Source of the DNA: Escherichia coli
GTDB taxonomy: Bacteria > Pseudomonadota > Gammaproteobacteria > Enterobacterales > Enterobacteriaceae
Direction: 5' to 3' (one strand)
Length of the DNA stretch: 64,000 nucleotides
Assembly (NCBI RefSeq): GCF_024223415.1
Contig: NZ_CP100500.1
The translations under genes and the position numbers were made by a program. This document shows positions 43,637 through 49,892 of the stretch, one piece after another. Under the pieces are notes generated by a model that did not search any database, was not told the origin of the DNA, and was given only the letters and a program-made list of their open reading frames with translations. Every line of letters begins with the position of its first letter. The first letter of the stretch is position 1.

Positions 43637-44203
43637 ATGCTTGAACTTAATGCTAAAACCACTGCGCTGGTGGTGATCGATTTACAAGAAGGCATCTTAC
43701 CTTTTGCCGGTGGTCCACATACTGCCGATGAGGTAGTTAATCGCGCCGGGAAGCTGGCGGCGAAATTTCGCGCCAGCGGTCAGCCCGTGTTTCTGGTGCG
43801 AGTTGGCTGGTCTGCCGATTACGCCGAAGCATTAAAACAGCCGGTTGATGCCCCCTCCCCCGCTAAAGTGTTGCCCGAAAACTGGTGGCAACATCCAGCT
43901 GTATTAGGTGCAACTGACAGTGATATCGAAATCATCAAACGTCAGTGGGGTGCGTTTTACGGTACGGATCTGGAGTTGCAATTACGCCGCCGAGGTATCG
44001 ATACAATAGTGTTATGTGGGATCTCGACCAATATCGGTGTTGAATCCACCGCCCGCAATGCCTGGGAACTTGGCTTTAATCTGGTGATTGCCGAAGACGC
44101 CTGTAGTGCCGCCAGCGCCGAGCAACACAATAACAGCATTAATCATATCTACCCGCGCATCGCCCGTGTGCGTAGCGTGGAAGAGATCCTTCACGCGTTA
44201 TGA
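43637..44203 (+). CDS. yecD: isochorismatase-family hydrolase YecD
   Basis: 188-aa product from [17 protein letters not shown]; the ORF track begins at an upstream GTG. Confidence 0.88.
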
Positions 44204-44310
44204 TTTACATCGGTCTACCGCAATGGTCGCATCCTAAATGGGTGCGGTTGGGGATCACCAGCCTTGAAGAGTATGCCCGCCACTTTAACTGCGTGATACG
44301 GGATTTTTAA
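44200..44310 (+). pseudogene. yecE: yecE 5' fragment, disrupted by prophage insertion
   Basis: Reads [32 protein letters not shown], then diverges from K-12 yecE and stops after 5 more codons; AT-rich phage-like DNA follows. Confidence 0.8.
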
Positions 44311-44411
44311 AAATCACTAAAGAACGCCCAAGAGCATGAGTTTTCTTTAGCATAATCAAAGCGTTGAATTTCCATGCCATATGAAAATCGGCAAAGTTCA
44401 TATGTAACAAA

Positions 44412-44471
44412 GTGTCCCAATCATGCCCCAAATTGCCCCACAACAGACATTTTTGCCCCATGCATGCCCCA
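44412..44471. repeat. phased direct repeats of TG(C/T)CCCA near the prophage-host junction
   Basis: Five copies (TGTCCCA, TGCCCCA x4) starting at 44413, 44424, 44434, 44454, 44465, spaced at ~10-bp multiples. Confidence 0.6.
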
Positions 44472-44492
44472 AAAAATCACTTTCCCTCACCC

Positions 44493-44542
44493 TTGACACT
44501 GTTTATCCATACAGTTAAAAATAATACTGTATACAAACACAG
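44493..44542 (+). promoter_or_regulatory. putative SOS-regulated promoter of phage dinI: -35 TTGACA with two LexA-box-like palindromes
   Basis: TTGACA at 44493-44498; CTGTTTATCCATACAG at 44499-44514; CTGTATACAAACACAG at 44527-44542; both fit CTGT-N8-ACAG. Confidence 0.6.
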
Positions 44543-44557
44543 TGTAGAGGGATTTTT

Positions 44558-44806
44558 ATGCGTATTGAAATCTGTATCGCTAAAGAAAAATTCAGCAAAA
44601 TGCCAAAAGGCTCTGTACCTGCTCTACAACAGGAAATGTCTCGCCGTATCAGAAAACAATACGACGATGTGGAGGTTATAGTAAAATCCGCCAGTAATGA
44701 CGGACTGACCATTTTAAGAGCCGTAGATAAAGAAAACGCTCAGAAGTTCATACAGGAAACGCTGCAGGAAGTCTGGGAAACTGCTGATGACTGGTTTTTT
44801 CACTAA
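44558..44806 (+). CDS. DinI-family DNA-damage-inducible protein (prophage-encoded)
   Basis: 82-aa [22 protein letters not shown]...[16 protein letters not shown], resembling DinI incl. C-terminal acidic WExADDWF motif; good SD (AGAGGG). Confidence 0.8.
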
Positions 44807-44873
44807 TCAGGACGTCAAATAAATAACAACTGTAATTATTCTCTCCAAATTAACAATCTCTGTATACATACTC

Positions 44874-44910
44874 AGGCGTGTTCACGCATACAACACGCCT
44901 TTCTGATATT
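44874..44910 (+). terminator. intrinsic terminator downstream of dinI-like gene
   Basis: AGGCGTGTT-cacgcatac-AACACGCCT followed by TTCTGATATTT. Confidence 0.55.
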
Positions 44911-44982
44911 TAATTGTTTACAGAAATATTGCCGAATAAAAATATAAACCATAGTCTTAAAAAAATAATAATTCCACTATAG

Positions 44983-45078
44983 CTATCCCAGAACAACCAG
45001 TACAAATAATAAAAGACATATCACAGCAACACTCCACACTGACAGCGCAAAAATAAATGCCGCCTTTGTTATCTTCAT
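44983..45078 (-). CDS. hypothetical 31-aa hydrophobic peptide (speculative)
   Basis: Manual translation: MKITKAAFIFALSVWSVAVICLLLFVLVVLG; single predicted TM helix; weak SD; lies in an AT-rich spacer. Confidence 0.2.
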   Translation of the reverse strand: MKITKAAFIFALSVWSVAVICLLLFVLVVLG

Positions 45079-45189
45079 ATACAAGCAACCTGTCCTGATA
45101 ATCACCAACTCATGTTTTATTCTTAACCATTCGTCACAAATACAACAAAAAATAACAGCAGCAGCACCGATATCACAATATAAGATACA

Positions 45190-45645
45190 TTATTCAACAC
45201 CTGAATCCCCCGCAGCTTCTCTCCCCTTTATAAAACGCCCCTTCCGGAATCCAGACCGCTGCAGTGCACGACGAAGATGACCGTATACCGTCTTGTCATT
45301 CTGCCCCGTCTCTTCTGTAATCTCCGCAATACTTAAACCTCTGTAATACCGGTTCAGTACCGCTCTGCGCTCTTCCAGCGTCAACACACCTCCGGCCGCT
45401 CTCAGATTCAGCATCGACTTATTCAGAATACAGCAGGCCTCTCCGGTAAAAAGAATACGAACAATATCTGTATACTCATCATCACAGAATACAAAATAAT
45501 ATCTGAATGACCTGCCTGACTGCACCCTTCTTCTGTCTGATATGGCATCTTCTATATATCTGATTCGACTGCTTACGGTTCCAAATATCTCTCGCAGGGC
45601 TTTTTCAAAATAAATATCTCTCGTCGCCAGGATTATATCCAGCAT
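45190..45645 (-). CDS. LuxR/GerE-type HTH transcriptional regulator (prophage accessory)
   Basis: 151-aa ORF; C-terminal LTLEERRAVLNRYYRGLSIAEITEETGQNDKTVYGHLRRALQR fits the GerE/LuxR HTH pattern; Arg codons almost all AGA/AGG/CGA and frequent ATA Ile. Confidence 0.6.
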   Translation of the reverse strand: MLDIILATRDIYFEKALREIFGTVSSRIRYIEDAISDRRRVQSGRSFRYYFVFCDDEYTDIVRILFTGEACCILNKSMLNLRAAGGVLTLEERRAVLNRYYRGLSIAEITEETGQNDKTVYGHLRRALQRSGFRKGRFIKGREAAGDSGVE

Positions 45646-45661
45646 CTCTGTACCTCATTAT

Positions 45662-45682
45662 ATCCCGGGGGACTCCCCCGGG
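45662..45682. other. GC-rich hairpin between eib-like gene and regulator
   Basis: TCCCGGGGG-ACT-CCCCCGGGA, 9-bp perfect stem, no U-tract. Confidence 0.5.
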
Positions 45683-45705
45683 ACAGATATCTAAATCCTG
45701 ACCTG

Positions 45706-46833
45706 TCAGAACTCAAAATTCACACCAGCATTCCACGATGCGGATGACCCACCTGCAGCAACTGCAACTTTTCCTGCCACATTCTCTGTGAAACGGTAGC
45801 CCACGCCCACCGCAATGGCCTGCTCATCACGGTAACCACCAACGGCTGCTGTCGCGTTAAATTTTCCAACACTGTATGGCTGGAAAAGACCGGCCAGTGC
45901 CGCGCTCTGGGCTGCACTCTCCCTTAACTCCTTCCGGTTCTCTTTAATCTGCTCCTGCATATTATTCATTCTCTCTGTCGCCATCTTCTGCCAGGCTTCC
46001 GTCAAATCCAGACGATGACTGTTATTCCTTATCGCTGCTGTATTTGAGGCTATTGCTGCATCCGTCTGCGCCCTGTTCTTCACAAGCACATCGCTGAGAT
46101 GTTCTGCCTGGCTTTTCACCTCGTTACGGACAGTACGCACACTGCTGTCTGTATATGTACGCGTCTCGTCCAGAACATCCGACTTCACCGCATCCGTGTA
46201 TTCCTGCGCAGAAGCCCTGGCAGCTGTAATATTACCGTTAAGTCTGTTTTCTGCCGATTCCACTCGACTCTTAGCATCAGCAACAGCATCACGGTAGACA
46301 GCTCCTATCTCACCGCGCAGGGCATCCCCCGACTCCCGTACAGCATCTGCAATGGCGTTGTCCATCTGTCCTTTTGTGGCCGCATCACTATCCTTAACAC
46401 CATCTGAAACATTTATAATCCGGCGGGTTTCCGGTGCACCATCAACTGAAAATCCATATCCTGAAGGACCGGCCCCTACAGAAAGTACATTGCTTTCTCC
46501 ATTCACCTGAGAGCCATACCCCAGAGCGACACTGTTGTCTGCATTAAAAACAGCTGTATTATTTCCCACAGCCATGGATTTATCCGCATCCCAAATTATT
46601 GCATCGGAACCAACAGCAAAGTTTTTTCCAGTAACACTACCATCACTGTTAAAATTTCCATTTCTGTCAACCACAGTTGCACTTTCAAGTGAATGAGTGC
46701 CATTATCAATCCAGATAATACCCGTCGATGACTCAGTAAGTGTTTTATGAGCCAAAGCCTGAGATGAGAGCAGCAGGGCCACACTCACTGCCAGCGCGCT
46801 TTTCTTTAAAAAAGCATCACGTCTTTTAAGCAT
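45706..46833 (-). CDS. trimeric autotransporter adhesin, Eib-like (E. coli immunoglobulin-binding protein family) candidate
   Basis: 375-aa product from MLKRRDAFLKKSALAVSVALLLSSQALA (signal peptide; SD AGGAG 9 nt upstream); coiled-coil stalk; C-terminal YadA-like anchor ...WNAGVNFEF; Eib genes are known prophage cargo; the ORF track extends 18 codons upstream. Confidence 0.7.
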   Translation of the reverse strand: MLKRRDAFLKKSALAVSVALLLSSQALAHKTLTESSTGIIWIDNGTHSLESATVVDRNGNFNSDGSVTGKNFAVGSDAIIWDADKSMAVGNNTAVFNADNSVALGYGSQVNGESNVLSVGAGPSGYGFSVDGAPETRRIINVSDGVKDSDAATKGQMDNAIADAVRESGDALRGEIGAVYRDAVADAKSRVESAENRLNGNITAARASAQEYTDAVKSDVLDETRTYTDSSVRTVRNEVKSQAEHLSDVLVKNRAQTDAAIASNTAAIRNNSHRLDLTEAWQKMATERMNNMQEQIKENRKELRESAAQSAALAGLFQPYSVGKFNATAAVGGYRDEQAIAVGVGYRFTENVAGKVAVAAGGSSASWNAGVNFEF

Positions 46834-47181
46834 TCTGTTATTCTCCTGTATTATTACTTCACCAGCCAGAACGGTAGTGCGGAGCAAAAATACAGTGATA
46901 AGAATCCTCTTTTATTAATTTAATAATATCAGGAATATTATTGTGTATAATATGCGCCCTCAATTTAAGCAGCAGAAAAGCAATGACGCGAAAATCATTA
47001 AAATACATAAAGATAAAACATCATAACTATAATTATAATAAGCGCGCTTATTTTAGCATCTGAACATTTAAAGTACTGCTATCACAAAACAATAAAAATC
47101 CTGGGTAATATCTCTGATGATTGAATGAGAAATTCACGATGTCTGGTGAGAATTCTGTTCAAAACGAGGAATGCAGACGTA

Positions 47182-47268
47182 CACGTGGCACGCACCACGT
47201 GATCCGTAGAAAAGCCTCTTGTTACGAATTTCGTAAACCGCACGTCTGTCTGGTCGTGCGGATTTTTT
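47182..47268 (+). other. three consecutive hairpins ending in an intrinsic terminator (candidate structured RNA 3' end)
   Basis: CACGTGG-cacgca-CCACGTG (47182-47201); perfect 15-bp palindrome TTACGAATTTCGTAA (47222-47236); CCGCACG-tctgtctggt-CGTGCGG + ATTTTTT (47238-47268). Confidence 0.45.
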
Positions 47269-47454
47269 ATCCGTCAACTTCACATGAAACCCGCCAGAGC
47301 ACTGTTTCCGGATTCAGACATCAGGCATATTATCATCCACAATATCGTGAACAAGATCACCTTTTTGCAATTCCTTTATTGATCGAAAGCAGTTAATCAC
47401 TGAAATTAATTACCGGAGTGAAAGCATTACTGCATAATAAATATAGATCCTTGC

Positions 47455-47488
47455 CCCCCTCTGACAGAATTTTCAGAGGGGTTTTTTT
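47455..47488 (+). terminator. strong plus-strand intrinsic terminator
   Basis: CCCCCTCTGA-cagaattt-TCAGAGGGGG followed by T7; plus-strand only. Confidence 0.65.
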
Positions 47489-47496
47489 TATCAGTT

Positions 47497-48072
47497 TCAC
47501 CATCCAACCCTGTACGCCAGAATGGTTTCACTGTCACTCAGTTCTGCTATTGCCTTTTTCATCTCCCTTTGCCTTATATGTATTTCAAGGCCTTTCCTGA
47601 ACATCGCTTTACCAGCAGCATCACTCAGGGATATCAGTTCATCTGCCGTCATCGGTACATCATTATTCTCTGCGTCCGTCCAGAAAAATCCTTCCGGCAA
47701 CACTCCGCCTCTGGCCGCTGATGCCGACATTCCAAGACGTGTCATGGCTTCCTTTCCATAATCCCATTTCCGTCCTCTGTGCTCAAAAACATACCCTGAC
47801 GCCTCCATCGCATCACGCCAGGCATTTATCTCCGCGTTTTTCATCCTGCGTGCTTCTTCCACAGCCATATCATCATTTGCCCGGTACTCACCTACCGGCC
47901 CTGCATCACCTCTTATGCAGGCTTCAAATATTTCACGACCGTAAGACTCAGGATCATCCGCACTTGCTGTAAATACACATTCTGTTTCCGCGTCTGAAAA
48001 CTTCACTATACAGTTTATGGTCGTATGACCCCTGTCAGCCCACACTGGTGACGTGATTTTATCGACCTTCAT
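47497..48072 (-). CDS. hypothetical phage protein at the tail-fibre-assembly (tfa) position
   Basis: 191-aa ORF immediately downstream of the stf-like gene with SD GGGGAGAAA; does not resemble lambda Tfa as far as I can recall; assignment is positional. Confidence 0.4.
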   Translation of the reverse strand: MKVDKITSPVWADRGHTTINCIVKFSDAETECVFTASADDPESYGREIFEACIRGDAGPVGEYRANDDMAVEEARRMKNAEINAWRDAMEASGYVFEHRGRKWDYGKEAMTRLGMSASAARGGVLPEGFFWTDAENNDVPMTADELISLSDAAGKAMFRKGLEIHIRQREMKKAIAELSDSETILAYRVGW

Positions 48073-48086
48073 TCATTTCTCCCCTG

Positions 48087-49892
48087 TCACCGTATTCTCT
48101 GAAACAGGCCCCAAATCGTCCCAATGATATTATTCACTGTCATGTTAGTTGTGCATAACATCCATGTACCAAGCATAGGATTGCCAAATAAAAAGCGGAT
48201 ATCTGTAAGTTTATCCGATGACGACGACACAATAACGGCCTGTCTGATACGATACCCGGGTATTTCACGGGTATTTGTTACCTCATGATTTCGTTCTATG
48301 ATCCCCAGAACATAAGACCCCACGGAATAAACACTTCCGACGCTCGCTGGCTGCCCCGGCTGTCCCTGTGGTCCTGCCGGGCCGCGTTCACCTGTATACC
48401 CTCTTGGCCCCTGAGGACCTGCCGGGCCGCGTTCACCTGTATCCCCCTTTAGTCCCTGTGGACCTGCCGGACCGCGTTCACCTGTATCGCCCTTTGGTCC
48501 CTGTGGACCACGCTCCCCCTGGGCTCCCAGCTCTTTCCATTCAGACCAGGGGCCATTACCGGTAAAATTACCAGTAACAGTTCTTACGAACTTTCGTGGT
48601 GGGTTCCAGGTTGTATATTCATGCTGGCAATATCCCCATGCACCAACTCTTACCTGAAGATAACCCGCTCTCTGAATCGGATAATTATTTTCTCGTGTAG
48701 CCCCACTGTCTGATGGCTGATAATAATCACCCTGATCGGTCACTCGTCCCAGTCGGTTCAGATCACCATTCAGCAGTTGTCCACGGGCTGACTCTCCTCT
48801 TGGTCCCTGAGGACCTGCCGGACCGCGTGCTCCTGTTTCACCTTTTGCTCCCTGTGGACCTGTCGGACCGCGTTCACCTGTTTCACCTTTTGGTCCCTGT
48901 GGTCCTGCCGGGCCGCGTTCACCTGTTTCACCCTTTGCTCCCTGTGGACCTTCCGGGCCACGTTCACCTGTATCCCCCTTTGGTCCCTGAGGACCTGCCG
49001 GGCCACGTTCACCTGTATCGCCCTTTGATCCCTGTGGACCTGCCGGGCCGCGTTCACCTGTATCCCCCTTTGGTCCCTGTGGACCTCCCGGATCTCCTTT
49101 ATCCCCCTTAGGGCCTTTTTCTCCTCGCTCACCCTTTTCTCCCTTCAGACCCTGAGGGCCTTCCGGACCACGTGCACCTGTTTCGCCCTTTGCTCCCTGT
49201 GGACCTGCCGGGCCGCGTTCACCTGTTTCGCCCTTTGCTCCCTGTGGACCTGCCGGGCCGCGTGCACCTGTTTCACCCTTTGGTCCCTGTGGACCTGCCG
49301 GGCCGCGTTCACCTGTATCGCCCTTTAGTCCCTGTGGACCTGCCGGACCGCGTTCACCTGTTTCACCTTTTGGTCCCTGTGGTCCTGCCGGGCCACGTGC
49401 TCCTGTTTCACCTTTTGGCCCCTGTGGCCCGGTAATGCCTCTTTCACCACGAGCGCCGGTATCCCCTTTCTCTCCTCGTGGTCCCCGGGCAGATGCTGCT
49501 CGTTTCCGGGCTTCCTCCGCCTCAGATGCCGCGGACTCTGCTCTGTGCAGTATGGACTGCACCACAGCCTCCAGCTCTGACAACGCCTTCGGATAATAAG
49601 GAGCATCTTCCAGCTCCATCAGAAATTTATTCAGTGTTCCCGGTGAAGAATCCTCCCTGACCACGATATCTCCCACATACGAAGGACGGTAACCTTCTGT
49701 ATTGAGTGTCACCCTGTATATTCCTGGCTCCACATCCATACTGTAACTCCCCGTCTCTTCCGGCATGCCATAAGCCACTGTCGTGGCGATGACTGTCTCG
49801 CTGGTTCTCTTCGCTTTCAGCTCAATAATGCATCCCGGTACCGGTTTTCCGGTTCCGTCCCTCAGCACGCCTGAAATTTTTACAGCCGCCAT
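48087..49892 (-). CDS. stf: side tail fibre protein (Stf-like) with collagen-like G-X-Y repeats
   Basis: 601-aa ORF; N-terminus [18 protein letters not shown]... resembles lambda Stf N-domain; two long blocks of GPxGxKGxTGxRG repeats; distinct C-terminal domain. Confidence 0.8.

Follow-up and report, generated by a model that had tools for sequence, protein, structure and literature searches.

A two-domain helix-turn-helix protein encoded behind an Eib-like adhesin gene of Escherichia coli, a divergent member of the ORF-156 family

Genes and signals at the adhesin locus

The window analysed is a 64,000-nucleotide stretch of E. coli DNA (contig NZ_CP100500.1). On its minus strand, at 45190..45645, lies an open reading frame (ORF) of 151 aa that is a real gene, with an ATG start and a Shine-Dalgarno sequence (GAGG, 45653..45656) 7 nt 5' of that codon. 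The product, identical in sequence to WP_000884153.1, is an uncharacterised DNA-binding protein and probably a local regulator; the gene is referred to below as the regulator gene. As the original prediction stated, it lies directly downstream of an eib-like gene on the same strand with a GC hairpin between the two, and the spacer that separates them is 60 nt long. The features of the region, in order of coordinate, are:

44983..45078, minus strand: small hydrophobic ORF, 31 aa
45122..45200, minus strand: small hydrophobic ORF, 25 aa, whose GTG start overlaps the regulator stop codon
45190..45645, minus strand: regulator gene (probable), ORF of 151 aa
45193..45255, minus strand: basic C-terminal tail, predicted to be disordered (pLDDT below 50 for residues 135-151), SGFRKGRFIKGREAAGDSGVE
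45256..45387, minus strand: helix-turn-helix (HTH) domain, sigma-70 region 4 / LuxR-GerE class, residues 87-130 (Pfam)
45406..45645, minus strand: N-terminal domain, residues 1-80, predicted β-α-β-α-β-α-β (AlphaFold2 model with the family alignment)
45646..45705, minus strand: spacer between adhesin and regulator, 60 nt, with two hairpins
45662..45684: GC hairpin (the second of the two), 11-bp stem and 3-nt loop, followed by AUAUAAUGAGG and no U tract
45706..46833, minus strand: gene for an Eib-like trimeric autotransporter adhesin, 375 aa from ATG; the frame is open up to a TTG at 46887
46834..47496, minus strand: AT-rich region upstream of the adhesin gene, 33-41% GC
47034..47055: 22-bp palindrome over a predicted -10
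47456..47481: stem-loop 5' of the adhesin gene
47497..48072, minus strand: tail-fibre assembly gene tfa, 191 aa, DUF4376, counterpart of orf-191 in the P-Eib records

The adhesin is recognised by the Pfam family YadA_anchor (E 2.4e-16), with YadA_stalk and YadA_head matching below threshold. Its identity to EibA is 57% over the final 118 aa only, and to EibE 36% over 286 aa; by sequence it is a distinct Eib-like lineage.

The 91-nt stretch that includes the hairpin (45630..45720) has a folding z-score of -3.2 against shuffles, and the hairpin loop comprises 3 or 4 nt depending on the copy. A promoter scan returned no promoter-like sites in the spacer or in the 3' end of the adhesin gene; a TATAAT that follows the hairpin was considered as part of a promoter and rejected, having no acceptable -35 and no site in the scan. 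The scan does report promoter-like sites, 47064..47035 and 47467..47440, on the 5' side of the adhesin gene. Since neither a consensus promoter for the regulator gene nor a U tract behind the hairpin is present, the gene is probably expressed by read-through.

Within the AT-rich upstream DNA, the block 47080..47420 was compared in four genomic contexts: between 47333 and 47182 it shows no differences, and over the remainder it is nearly identical. It always accompanies the 151-aa type of regulator and is missing from the P-EibA and P-EibE loci, and it is a plausible candidate for a cis target. Its folding is no better than that of shuffles (z = -0.44). Two other sites were examined as operators and discarded: BEN2908, whose regulator is identical, does not preserve the palindrome at 47034..47055, and an RcsAB-box-like site at 46930..46943 is one of 4 such matches where 2.9 are expected by chance. 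An Rfam scan of 44200..47700 gave nothing meaningful. On the other side of the regulator gene, the status of the two small ORFs as genes is uncertain, and past them lies a dinI-like gene on the opposite strand.

Domains and family of the 151-aa protein

The C-terminal domain of the protein is an HTH of the sigma-70 region 4 / LuxR-GerE class. Its top Pfam match, over residues 87-130, is Sigma70_r4_2 (30.9 bits against a cut-off of 25.7); other HTH families match more weakly, and GerE (PF00196) is absent from the Pfam results for this protein at E<=1. A profile of the wider family described below matches the GerE chain 1fse (E 4.4e-5), GerE gives sub-threshold Pfam matches in 4 of 29 relatives (best E 1.7e-4), and the family member L016 reaches 21.8 bits against the GerE cut-off of 23.5. 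The LuxR/GerE-type HTH originally proposed therefore stands at the level of superfamily and family, where the profile leads to GerE, and fails as the top Pfam assignment of this particular sequence.

In the predicted structure the tetrahelical HTH fold of GerE, NarL and RcsB is present, and sigma-4 domains superpose on it at 0.6-1.5 Å with 28-33% identity (Foldseek). The protein is labelled 'sigma factor-like helix-turn-helix DNA-binding protein' by PGAP and 'sigma-70 family RNA polymerase sigma factor' in other sources, and both sigma-type names mirror the HTH alone. NCBIfam gives sub-threshold ECF-sigma alignments that are limited to region 4 (TIGR02937, 19 bits against 42.9), and Pfam finds no region 2 (Sigma70_r2) at E<=1. 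The protein is not a sigma factor, because region 2 is absent.

Residues 1-86 searched alone give zero Pfam matches, and the N-terminal domain had first been thought to match nothing. That view no longer holds, since the domain aligns with the N-terminal domain of ORF-156 / phrog_6585 (hhalign probability 90.8%). An AlphaFold2 run with the family alignment gave a mean pLDDT of 78.4, and a run without an alignment (pLDDT 37) was not usable. The elements of the AlphaFold2 model are:

β1: residues 2-7
α1: residues 11-27
β2: residues 28-30
α2: residues 31-38
β3: residues 49-54
α3: residues 56-65
β4: residues 70-75
HTH helices: residues 90-101, 106-113 and 117-130
disordered basic tail: residues about 131-151 (pLDDT below 50 from residue 135)

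When the whole chain is searched with Foldseek, FixJ is matched with probability 0.97 and E 2e-3 over 186 columns, which is marginal; matches to FixJ, StyR and RcsB in the PDB library span about 185-200 columns with probabilities of 0.85-0.97, E 2e-3 or weaker and a TM of about 0.3. The best fold match in the viral library is a CheY-like receiver and HTH protein (E 8.6e-4), JGI calls one cluster member a NarL/FixJ response regulator, and one relative gives a weak match to RcsC-ABL. Asp55, at the end of β3, is invariant across the family, and the 151-aa protein also keeps the family residues T8, Y12, E14, F66, G68 and K118-T119-V120; residues 8-10 read T-R-D here and T-R-N in most relatives. 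By alignment and model, the β3 Asp alone is conserved, and the acidic pair of β1, the Thr/Ser after β4 and the Lys after β5 are missing. The model of the N-terminal domain also contains neither β5 nor α5. As modelled, this domain looks like a truncated pseudo-receiver, (βα)3-β, joined to a LuxR / sigma-4-type HTH.

Proteins of 156-158 aa, the ORF-156 type, are encoded behind other Eib-like genes at the same prophage position. Database annotations call them 'hypothetical' or 'LuxR family transcriptional regulator', and they correspond to the PHROG family phrog_6585 (E 2e-93). Single-sequence searches with the 151-aa protein (a word-indexed search of 5.8 billion proteins and phmmer on 1.84 billion representatives) returned only copies of at least 88% identity and HTH-only matches, and did not connect the 151-aa branch with ORF-156. 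Direct BLASTP comparison with ORF-156-type proteins gives E 6e-6 and 2e-4 in colinear, full-length alignments of about 22% identity. A profile search for the family collects about 50 clusters, nearly all from E. coli, and hhalign of 29 family sequences against the 151-aa protein gives a probability of 96.5% (E 7e-10, 129 columns); taken by halves, the N-terminal domain aligns with E 1.2e-6 and the HTH at 75%. The HMM of phrog_6585 itself matches the protein weakly (E 3.3e-4, N-terminal domain only), as is explained by its ORF-156 relatives being phrog_6585. These profile comparisons place the 151-aa protein in the ORF-156 / phrog_6585 family, as a divergent outlier. Among the ORF-156 proteins themselves, dN/dS values are 0.09-0.24 in unsaturated pairs, which indicates purifying selection.

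The relationship extends to the loci. In the prophages P-EibA, P-EibC, P-EibD and P-EibE of E. coli ECOR-9 (AF151091, AF151674-AF151676), ORF-156 lies on the same strand and in the same place, 3' of the adhesin gene past a stem-loop; the suggestion that other eib loci be checked for the same neighbour is thus answered by a homologous ORF-156 at that place in the classical loci. The gene order common to the P-Eib records and the window is tfa(orf-191), stem-loop, adhesin, stem-loop, regulator, small hydrophobic ORF, dinI-like gene, and the inducible phages PhiR5_1 and GER2 share it. Adhesin followed by regulator recurs in P-EibA, P-EibC, P-EibD, P-EibE, PhiR5_1, GER2 and five further loci. In ORF-156-type loci the regulator is followed by the gene for a conserved small membrane protein (orf-60 in the P-Eib records), at the position of the small ORFs of the window.

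The two types also differ. Both are colinear two-domain proteins, but the window protein (151 aa, against 156-158) is shorter by about 15 residues between the domains, and its HTH scores as sigma-70 region 4 whereas those of its ORF-156 relatives score as GerE. The spacer hairpin is followed by a T run in ORF-156-type loci, where a canonical terminator occupies this position (an annotated stem_loop in the P-Eib records), and by none in the window. The adhesin of the window and the DNA upstream of it belong to a lineage apart from that of the ORF-156 loci. Some members of the family have no adhesin gene beside them, namely a member in phage 2B8, a common copy beside hpaC (the hpa locus) and fragments in 933W and VT2-Sakai.

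Distribution, linkage and codon usage

The regulator gene occurs at 313 places in 183 of 5426 complete E. coli genomes, with up to 8 per genome. In 181 of the 183 carriers it is at least 99% identical near full length, a single match covers at least 80% of the query in 182 of them, and it is annotated as a CDS among the matches listed. The exact 151-aa protein is found on at least 1000 contigs. By tblastn, nothing was found in phage records (at 1e-5) or plasmid records (at 1e-3); a weak full-length match in MT836610.1 (E = 5) was traced to a mobilisable element, where it is a helical ORF with no relation to the protein. PADLOC gave no match for the protein. Neither the profile search nor exhaustive searching of 1.84 billion representative proteins brought up relatives outside E. 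coli, Salmonella and Citrobacter.

Of the 183 carrier genomes, 163 match a 501-nt probe across the adhesin-regulator junction without interruption, and the pair moves together in prophages and in non-phage islands, which upholds the linkage to the adhesin. The copy of strain GF4 belongs to a lambdoid prophage at dusA, with dinI and int as neighbours; that of the window adjoins yecD; that of SMS-3-5 is in a non-phage island beside the aerobactin operon; and that of BEN2908 is in a chromosomal island amid sugar-uptake genes (PTS, transketolase). Homology between prophage and island copies covers 44971..47576, including the last 80 nt of tfa, and the conserved module ends at 44971. Some island copies are bounded by IS elements and retain the stub of phage tfa. 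Since these 80 nt from the 3' end of tfa are retained, the island copies are prophage remnants.

The 3' end of the adhesin gene, the spacer, the regulator gene and 220 nt downstream are 97-100% identical between copies, and at least 99% in most comparisons. Spacer and regulator are at least 99% identical, and the adhesin head and the promoter-proximal DNA are variable. The translation of the regulator gene is the same in GF4 and BEN2908, and in four copies compared the amino-acid differences fall only at residues 144/145. The few substitutions seen in the regulator are mostly non-synonymous (S46L, I19V, F53L, A144V, A145T), and frameshifted variants of 220 and 119 aa exist; a 111-aa 'truncated' cluster (P0004) is an artefact of contig ends and no true truncation. 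Because the regulator gene (99.3-99.8%) and adjacent non-coding DNA (98.6-99.5%) are equally conserved, this near-identity points to recent spread and not to measurable selection on the 151-aa branch. IS421, IS5 and ISKpn26 have inserted independently in the 60-nt spacer, and IS3 inside the regulator gene; 145 contigs carry the resulting 74-aa truncated form, and at least 1000 the intact protein. Such repeated separation and truncation by IS elements means that loss or uncoupling of the regulator is tolerated.

The regulator gene had also been singled out for extreme rare-codon usage. Its 21 Arg codons are AGA (9), AGG (2), CGA (2), CGG (3), CGT (4) and CGC (1), so that AGA, AGG and CGA make up 13 of 21 (62%) and not almost every one, as had been claimed; ATA, described as frequent, accounts for 5 of 13 Ile codons, and CTG for 9 of 13 Leu codons, at a GC content of 45.8%. 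Measured against a local reference set of 40 host ORFs within the window, its codon adaptation index (CAI) is 0.557, the lowest among the prophage-side ORFs of the window, compared with 0.707 +/- 0.067 for the host genes (host minimum 0.475). The adjoining tfa gene is similar (CAI 0.574, rare codons 11/15 for Arg, ATA 9/11 for Ile), and rare codons make up 48% of Arg codons in prophage genes and 20% in host genes. The bias of the regulator gene is real and strong, yet usual for lambdoid cargo and for the cargo of this prophage; it is the extremeness that does not survive comparison with tfa and the prophage as a whole. A recent origin from a low-GC donor, as first proposed, is unsupported given the GC content of 46%, the E. 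coli-like, CTG-rich Leu usage, the bias common to the neighbours and the taxonomic range of the relatives.

Possible roles and related systems

From its sequence, the 151-aa protein is most likely a regulator. On balance we lean towards a divergent two-domain regulator of the ORF-156 branch that is made by read-through, works independently of phosphorylation and has the adhesin promoter, host genes or both as its targets. Transcripts that start at the adhesin promoter, or late transcripts of the phage, would read through into the gene and yield small amounts of the protein, which would bind DNA without phosphorylation, either as a homodimer or with a host partner of the FixJ/NarL family such as RcsB. 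Bound in this way, it might feed back on the AT-rich, probably H-NS-silenced adhesin promoter, and it may also relay the 'adhesin on' state to host genes. Auxiliary regulators of FixJ/NarL type, for example BglJ, activate H-NS-repressed loci together with RcsB (PMC3950696, PMC5651002).

A more detailed version can be entertained tentatively. The 151-aa protein and ORF-156 may form a phage-borne class of truncated pseudo-receiver / LuxR-type proteins that, with the adhesin and the small membrane protein, constitutes a three-gene 'moron', in which the regulator is the local switch for Eib-type adhesins; at the AT-rich promoter it would exert positive feedback or relieve silencing, perhaps as a heterodimer with RcsB. 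If true, this could account for the induction of Eib-type adhesins by static growth and in stationary phase. Eib expression responds to both through unnamed local factors (PMC4352079, PMC5450701). Regulation of Eib has been described in terms of static growth, growth phase, temperature and oxygen, and as complex and strain-dependent (PMC4352079, PMC5450701, PMC12511318, bioRxiv 2025.12.25.695649); a linked regulator is not mentioned in these four papers. A literature search with the regulator accessions found nothing, and one for ORF-156/orf-191 found only papers unrelated to E. coli or Eib.

A strictly cargo-specific role, as a regulator of the adhesin next to it, is weakened by the family members that have no adhesin gene. 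These relatives and the tolerated uncoupling suggest that the regulator may have targets other than, or in addition to, the adhesin gene. By analogy, the protein could then be an output regulator, made through adhesin transcription and acting on host or phage genes elsewhere (e.g., motility, aggregation or envelope genes) and not on the eib promoter, a reading we regard as somewhat doubtful. Its gene follows that of the adhesin, with a hairpin or terminator in between, so that its synthesis would track adhesin transcription; this placement is in keeping with such a role, as are the persistence of relatives without any adhesin gene and the occurrence of identical regulators, in up to 8 copies per genome, beside differing adhesin heads and partly differing promoter-proximal DNA. 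However, a cis target at the adhesin gene would explain equally well why the block 47080..47420 always accompanies this type of regulator, and the analogy with PapX is not based on homology.

Two further explanations were weighed. The 151-aa branch might be a functionless or decaying passenger that hitch-hikes with the 3' end of the adhesin gene in a recently spread block; conservation that does not exceed that of the non-coding flanks, the mostly non-synonymous substitutions, the repeated IS insertions in spacer and gene, the frameshifted 220- and 119-aa variants and the poorest codon usage of the region would all be expected of one. We consider it unlikely, in view of the near full length and at least 99% identity in about 181 of 183 complete genomes, the exact sequence on at least 1000 contigs, the good Shine-Dalgarno sequence and start codon, the confident predicted fold, the retention of the family residues from T8 to K118-T119-V120, and the purifying selection on the sister ORF-156 family. 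It is very improbable that the protein acts on RNA polymerase in a sigma-like manner, whether as an alternative or split sigma or as a mimic of region 4 competing for the beta-flap or an anti-sigma, with the small membrane peptides being anti-sigma-like. The Sigma70_r4_2 score above its cut-off, the 'sigma-70 family RNA polymerase sigma factor' name, the close superposition of sigma-4 domains and the hydrophobic small ORF that overlaps the regulator stop codon all speak for this, and are outweighed by the absence of a Sigma70_r2 match, a TIGR02937 score far short of its cut-off, an N-terminal domain that is alpha/beta where region 2 is all-helical, relatives that score as GerE/LuxR, and small ORFs too short for an anti-sigma domain.

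The chief interest of the gene is as a concrete candidate, open to simple tests, for what controls Eib-type adhesins locally. Such trimeric autotransporters give commensal, avian-pathogenic and Shiga-toxin-producing E. coli resistance to serum, the ability to bind immunoglobulins and a chain-like mode of adherence, and a homologous small HTH protein is encoded behind every classical eib gene and behind this lineage. The analysis also joins two previously unconnected groups of database entries, the 'sigma factor-like HTH protein' of the 151-aa branch and the 'ORF-156', 'hypothetical' or 'LuxR family' entries, and corrects the misleading 'sigma-70 family sigma factor' label.

Several known systems resemble parts of this arrangement. 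IbrA and IbrB were reportedly found by Sandt, Hopper and Hill in 2002 to be trans-activators of eib genes in ECOR-9; they regulate Eib expression, but are unlinked to the eib genes and unrelated to the 151-aa protein in sequence class, and they leave the conserved linked gene unexplained. PapX, SfaX and FocX are small MarR-type regulators whose genes stand at the distal ends of fimbrial operons, so that their synthesis tracks adhesin expression. The placement 3' of the adhesin is the same, but they are not homologous to the 151-aa protein and the analogy is functional only; the link to motility genes has no counterpart in the evidence on the 151-aa protein. The ECF sigma factors have a region 4.2 HTH like that of the 151-aa protein in both sequence and structure, whereas the latter has no region 2, has an alpha/beta N-terminal domain and does not reach the family cut-offs.

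The FixJ/NarL regulators, including RcsB, RcsA, BglJ and MatA/EcpR, join a receiver-like N-terminal domain to a tetrahelical HTH, as the 151-aa protein does in its predicted structure, and the conserved D55 of the 151-aa protein matches the Asp found at the end of β3 in response regulators. Their receiver comprises about 120 aa and five strands, against about 80 aa and four strands in the N-terminal domain described here, which also lacks the β1 acidic pair, the Thr/Ser, the Lys and the α4-β5-α5 face; the 151-aa protein has no Response_reg or GerE match in Pfam, and no cognate kinase is encoded near its gene. MatA/EcpR is itself an adhesin-linked regulator that acts with RcsB. By analogy, the closest working counterparts of the 151-aa protein would be these phosphorylation-independent regulators of FixJ/NarL type, BglJ and MatA/EcpR acting with RcsB.

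Adhesin heads and the prophage end

The adhesin gene, which encodes the Eib-like trimeric autotransporter (45706..46833, minus strand), is a mosaic when compared with three other loci (L001, L005 and L006). The 3' end of the gene, coding for anchor and stalk, is almost identical in all copies, but the head and middle vary by substitutions and indels to give variants of 369 to 421 amino acids. A near-identical 3' end joined to differing head and middle regions suggests that adhesin heads are exchanged through recombination within the gene.

The tail-fibre gene of the window is:
48087..49892, minus strand, tail-fibre protein of 601 aa with long collagen-like G-X-Y repeats
This protein belongs to the EPcl-type prophage collagen-like class (PMC3368898). 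In the stretch 44204..44557, where yecD and the dinI-like gene flank this prophage end, an integrase gene is absent, unlike in GF4, a prophage copy of the module, in which int adjoins dinI at dusA.

Non-coding DNA upstream of the adhesin gene

Between the tail-fibre assembly gene (tfa) and the adhesin gene are the following elements:
47456..47481, strong hairpin
47080..47420, conserved non-coding block 5' of the adhesin gene
47235..47264, short hairpin in the block
47190..47207, short hairpin in the block
47034..47055, 22-bp near-perfect palindrome, minus-strand sequence TAAAATAAGCGCGCTTATTATA

Because its T run is confined to the plus strand, the strong hairpin would terminate transcription arriving from the opposite direction; its counterpart is annotated as "stem_loop" in the records of the ECOR-9 prophages P-EibA, C, D and E. 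Across four different genomic contexts the conserved block shows full identity between 47333 and 47182 and near-identity in the remainder. Rfam had no match to it, and its overall fold was not significant. An 84-bp insertion/deletion at 47181/47182, with CACGTG repeats on its flanks, separates the copies: the segment is carried by the island copies of SMS-3-5 and BEN2908 and is missing from the prophage copies of the window and GF4. The promoter-proximal 100 bp adjoining the block are divergent in BEN2908, in which the palindrome is not conserved. This palindrome overlaps the -10 element of the predicted adhesin promoter, and a second, related copy is found 88 nt downstream (46946..46967).

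The spacer and the genes downstream

Comparison of the window with loci L010, L011, L012 and L013 shows independent insertions of IS421, ISKpn26 and IS5 in the 60-nt spacer between the adhesin and regulator genes (45646..45705). The regulator gene itself has been interrupted by IS3, and the resulting 74-aa form is present on 145 contigs. Such recurrent insertions at the spacer and regulator could reflect either a hot spot for insertion or selection for uncoupling.

Directly 3' of the regulator gene in the window are two small hydrophobic ORFs:
45122..45200, minus strand, 25 aa, with a GTG start overlapping the regulator stop codon
44983..45078, minus strand, 31 aa
Conservation of the module extends to 44971, a little beyond the second of these.

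Behind an Eib-like gene in a deer isolate (L016; NZ_CP166879.1, 1..3788) come a 68-aa ORF, a regulator of the ORF-156 type and a second regulator, of the GerE type (171 aa); a Pmp3-family membrane protein, mscS and a PAPS-reductase-like gene complete the series. IbrA is a member of the PAPS-reductase-like class, and an IbrA-like gene is found near an eib-type module in this isolate.

Loci of the ORF-156 type encode orf-60, a conserved small membrane protein with the motif ...RKRYTxGAMCFMLFVWLGGVV... Although the small ORFs of the window have no sequence similarity to orf-60, they share with it both their position and a single predicted transmembrane helix.
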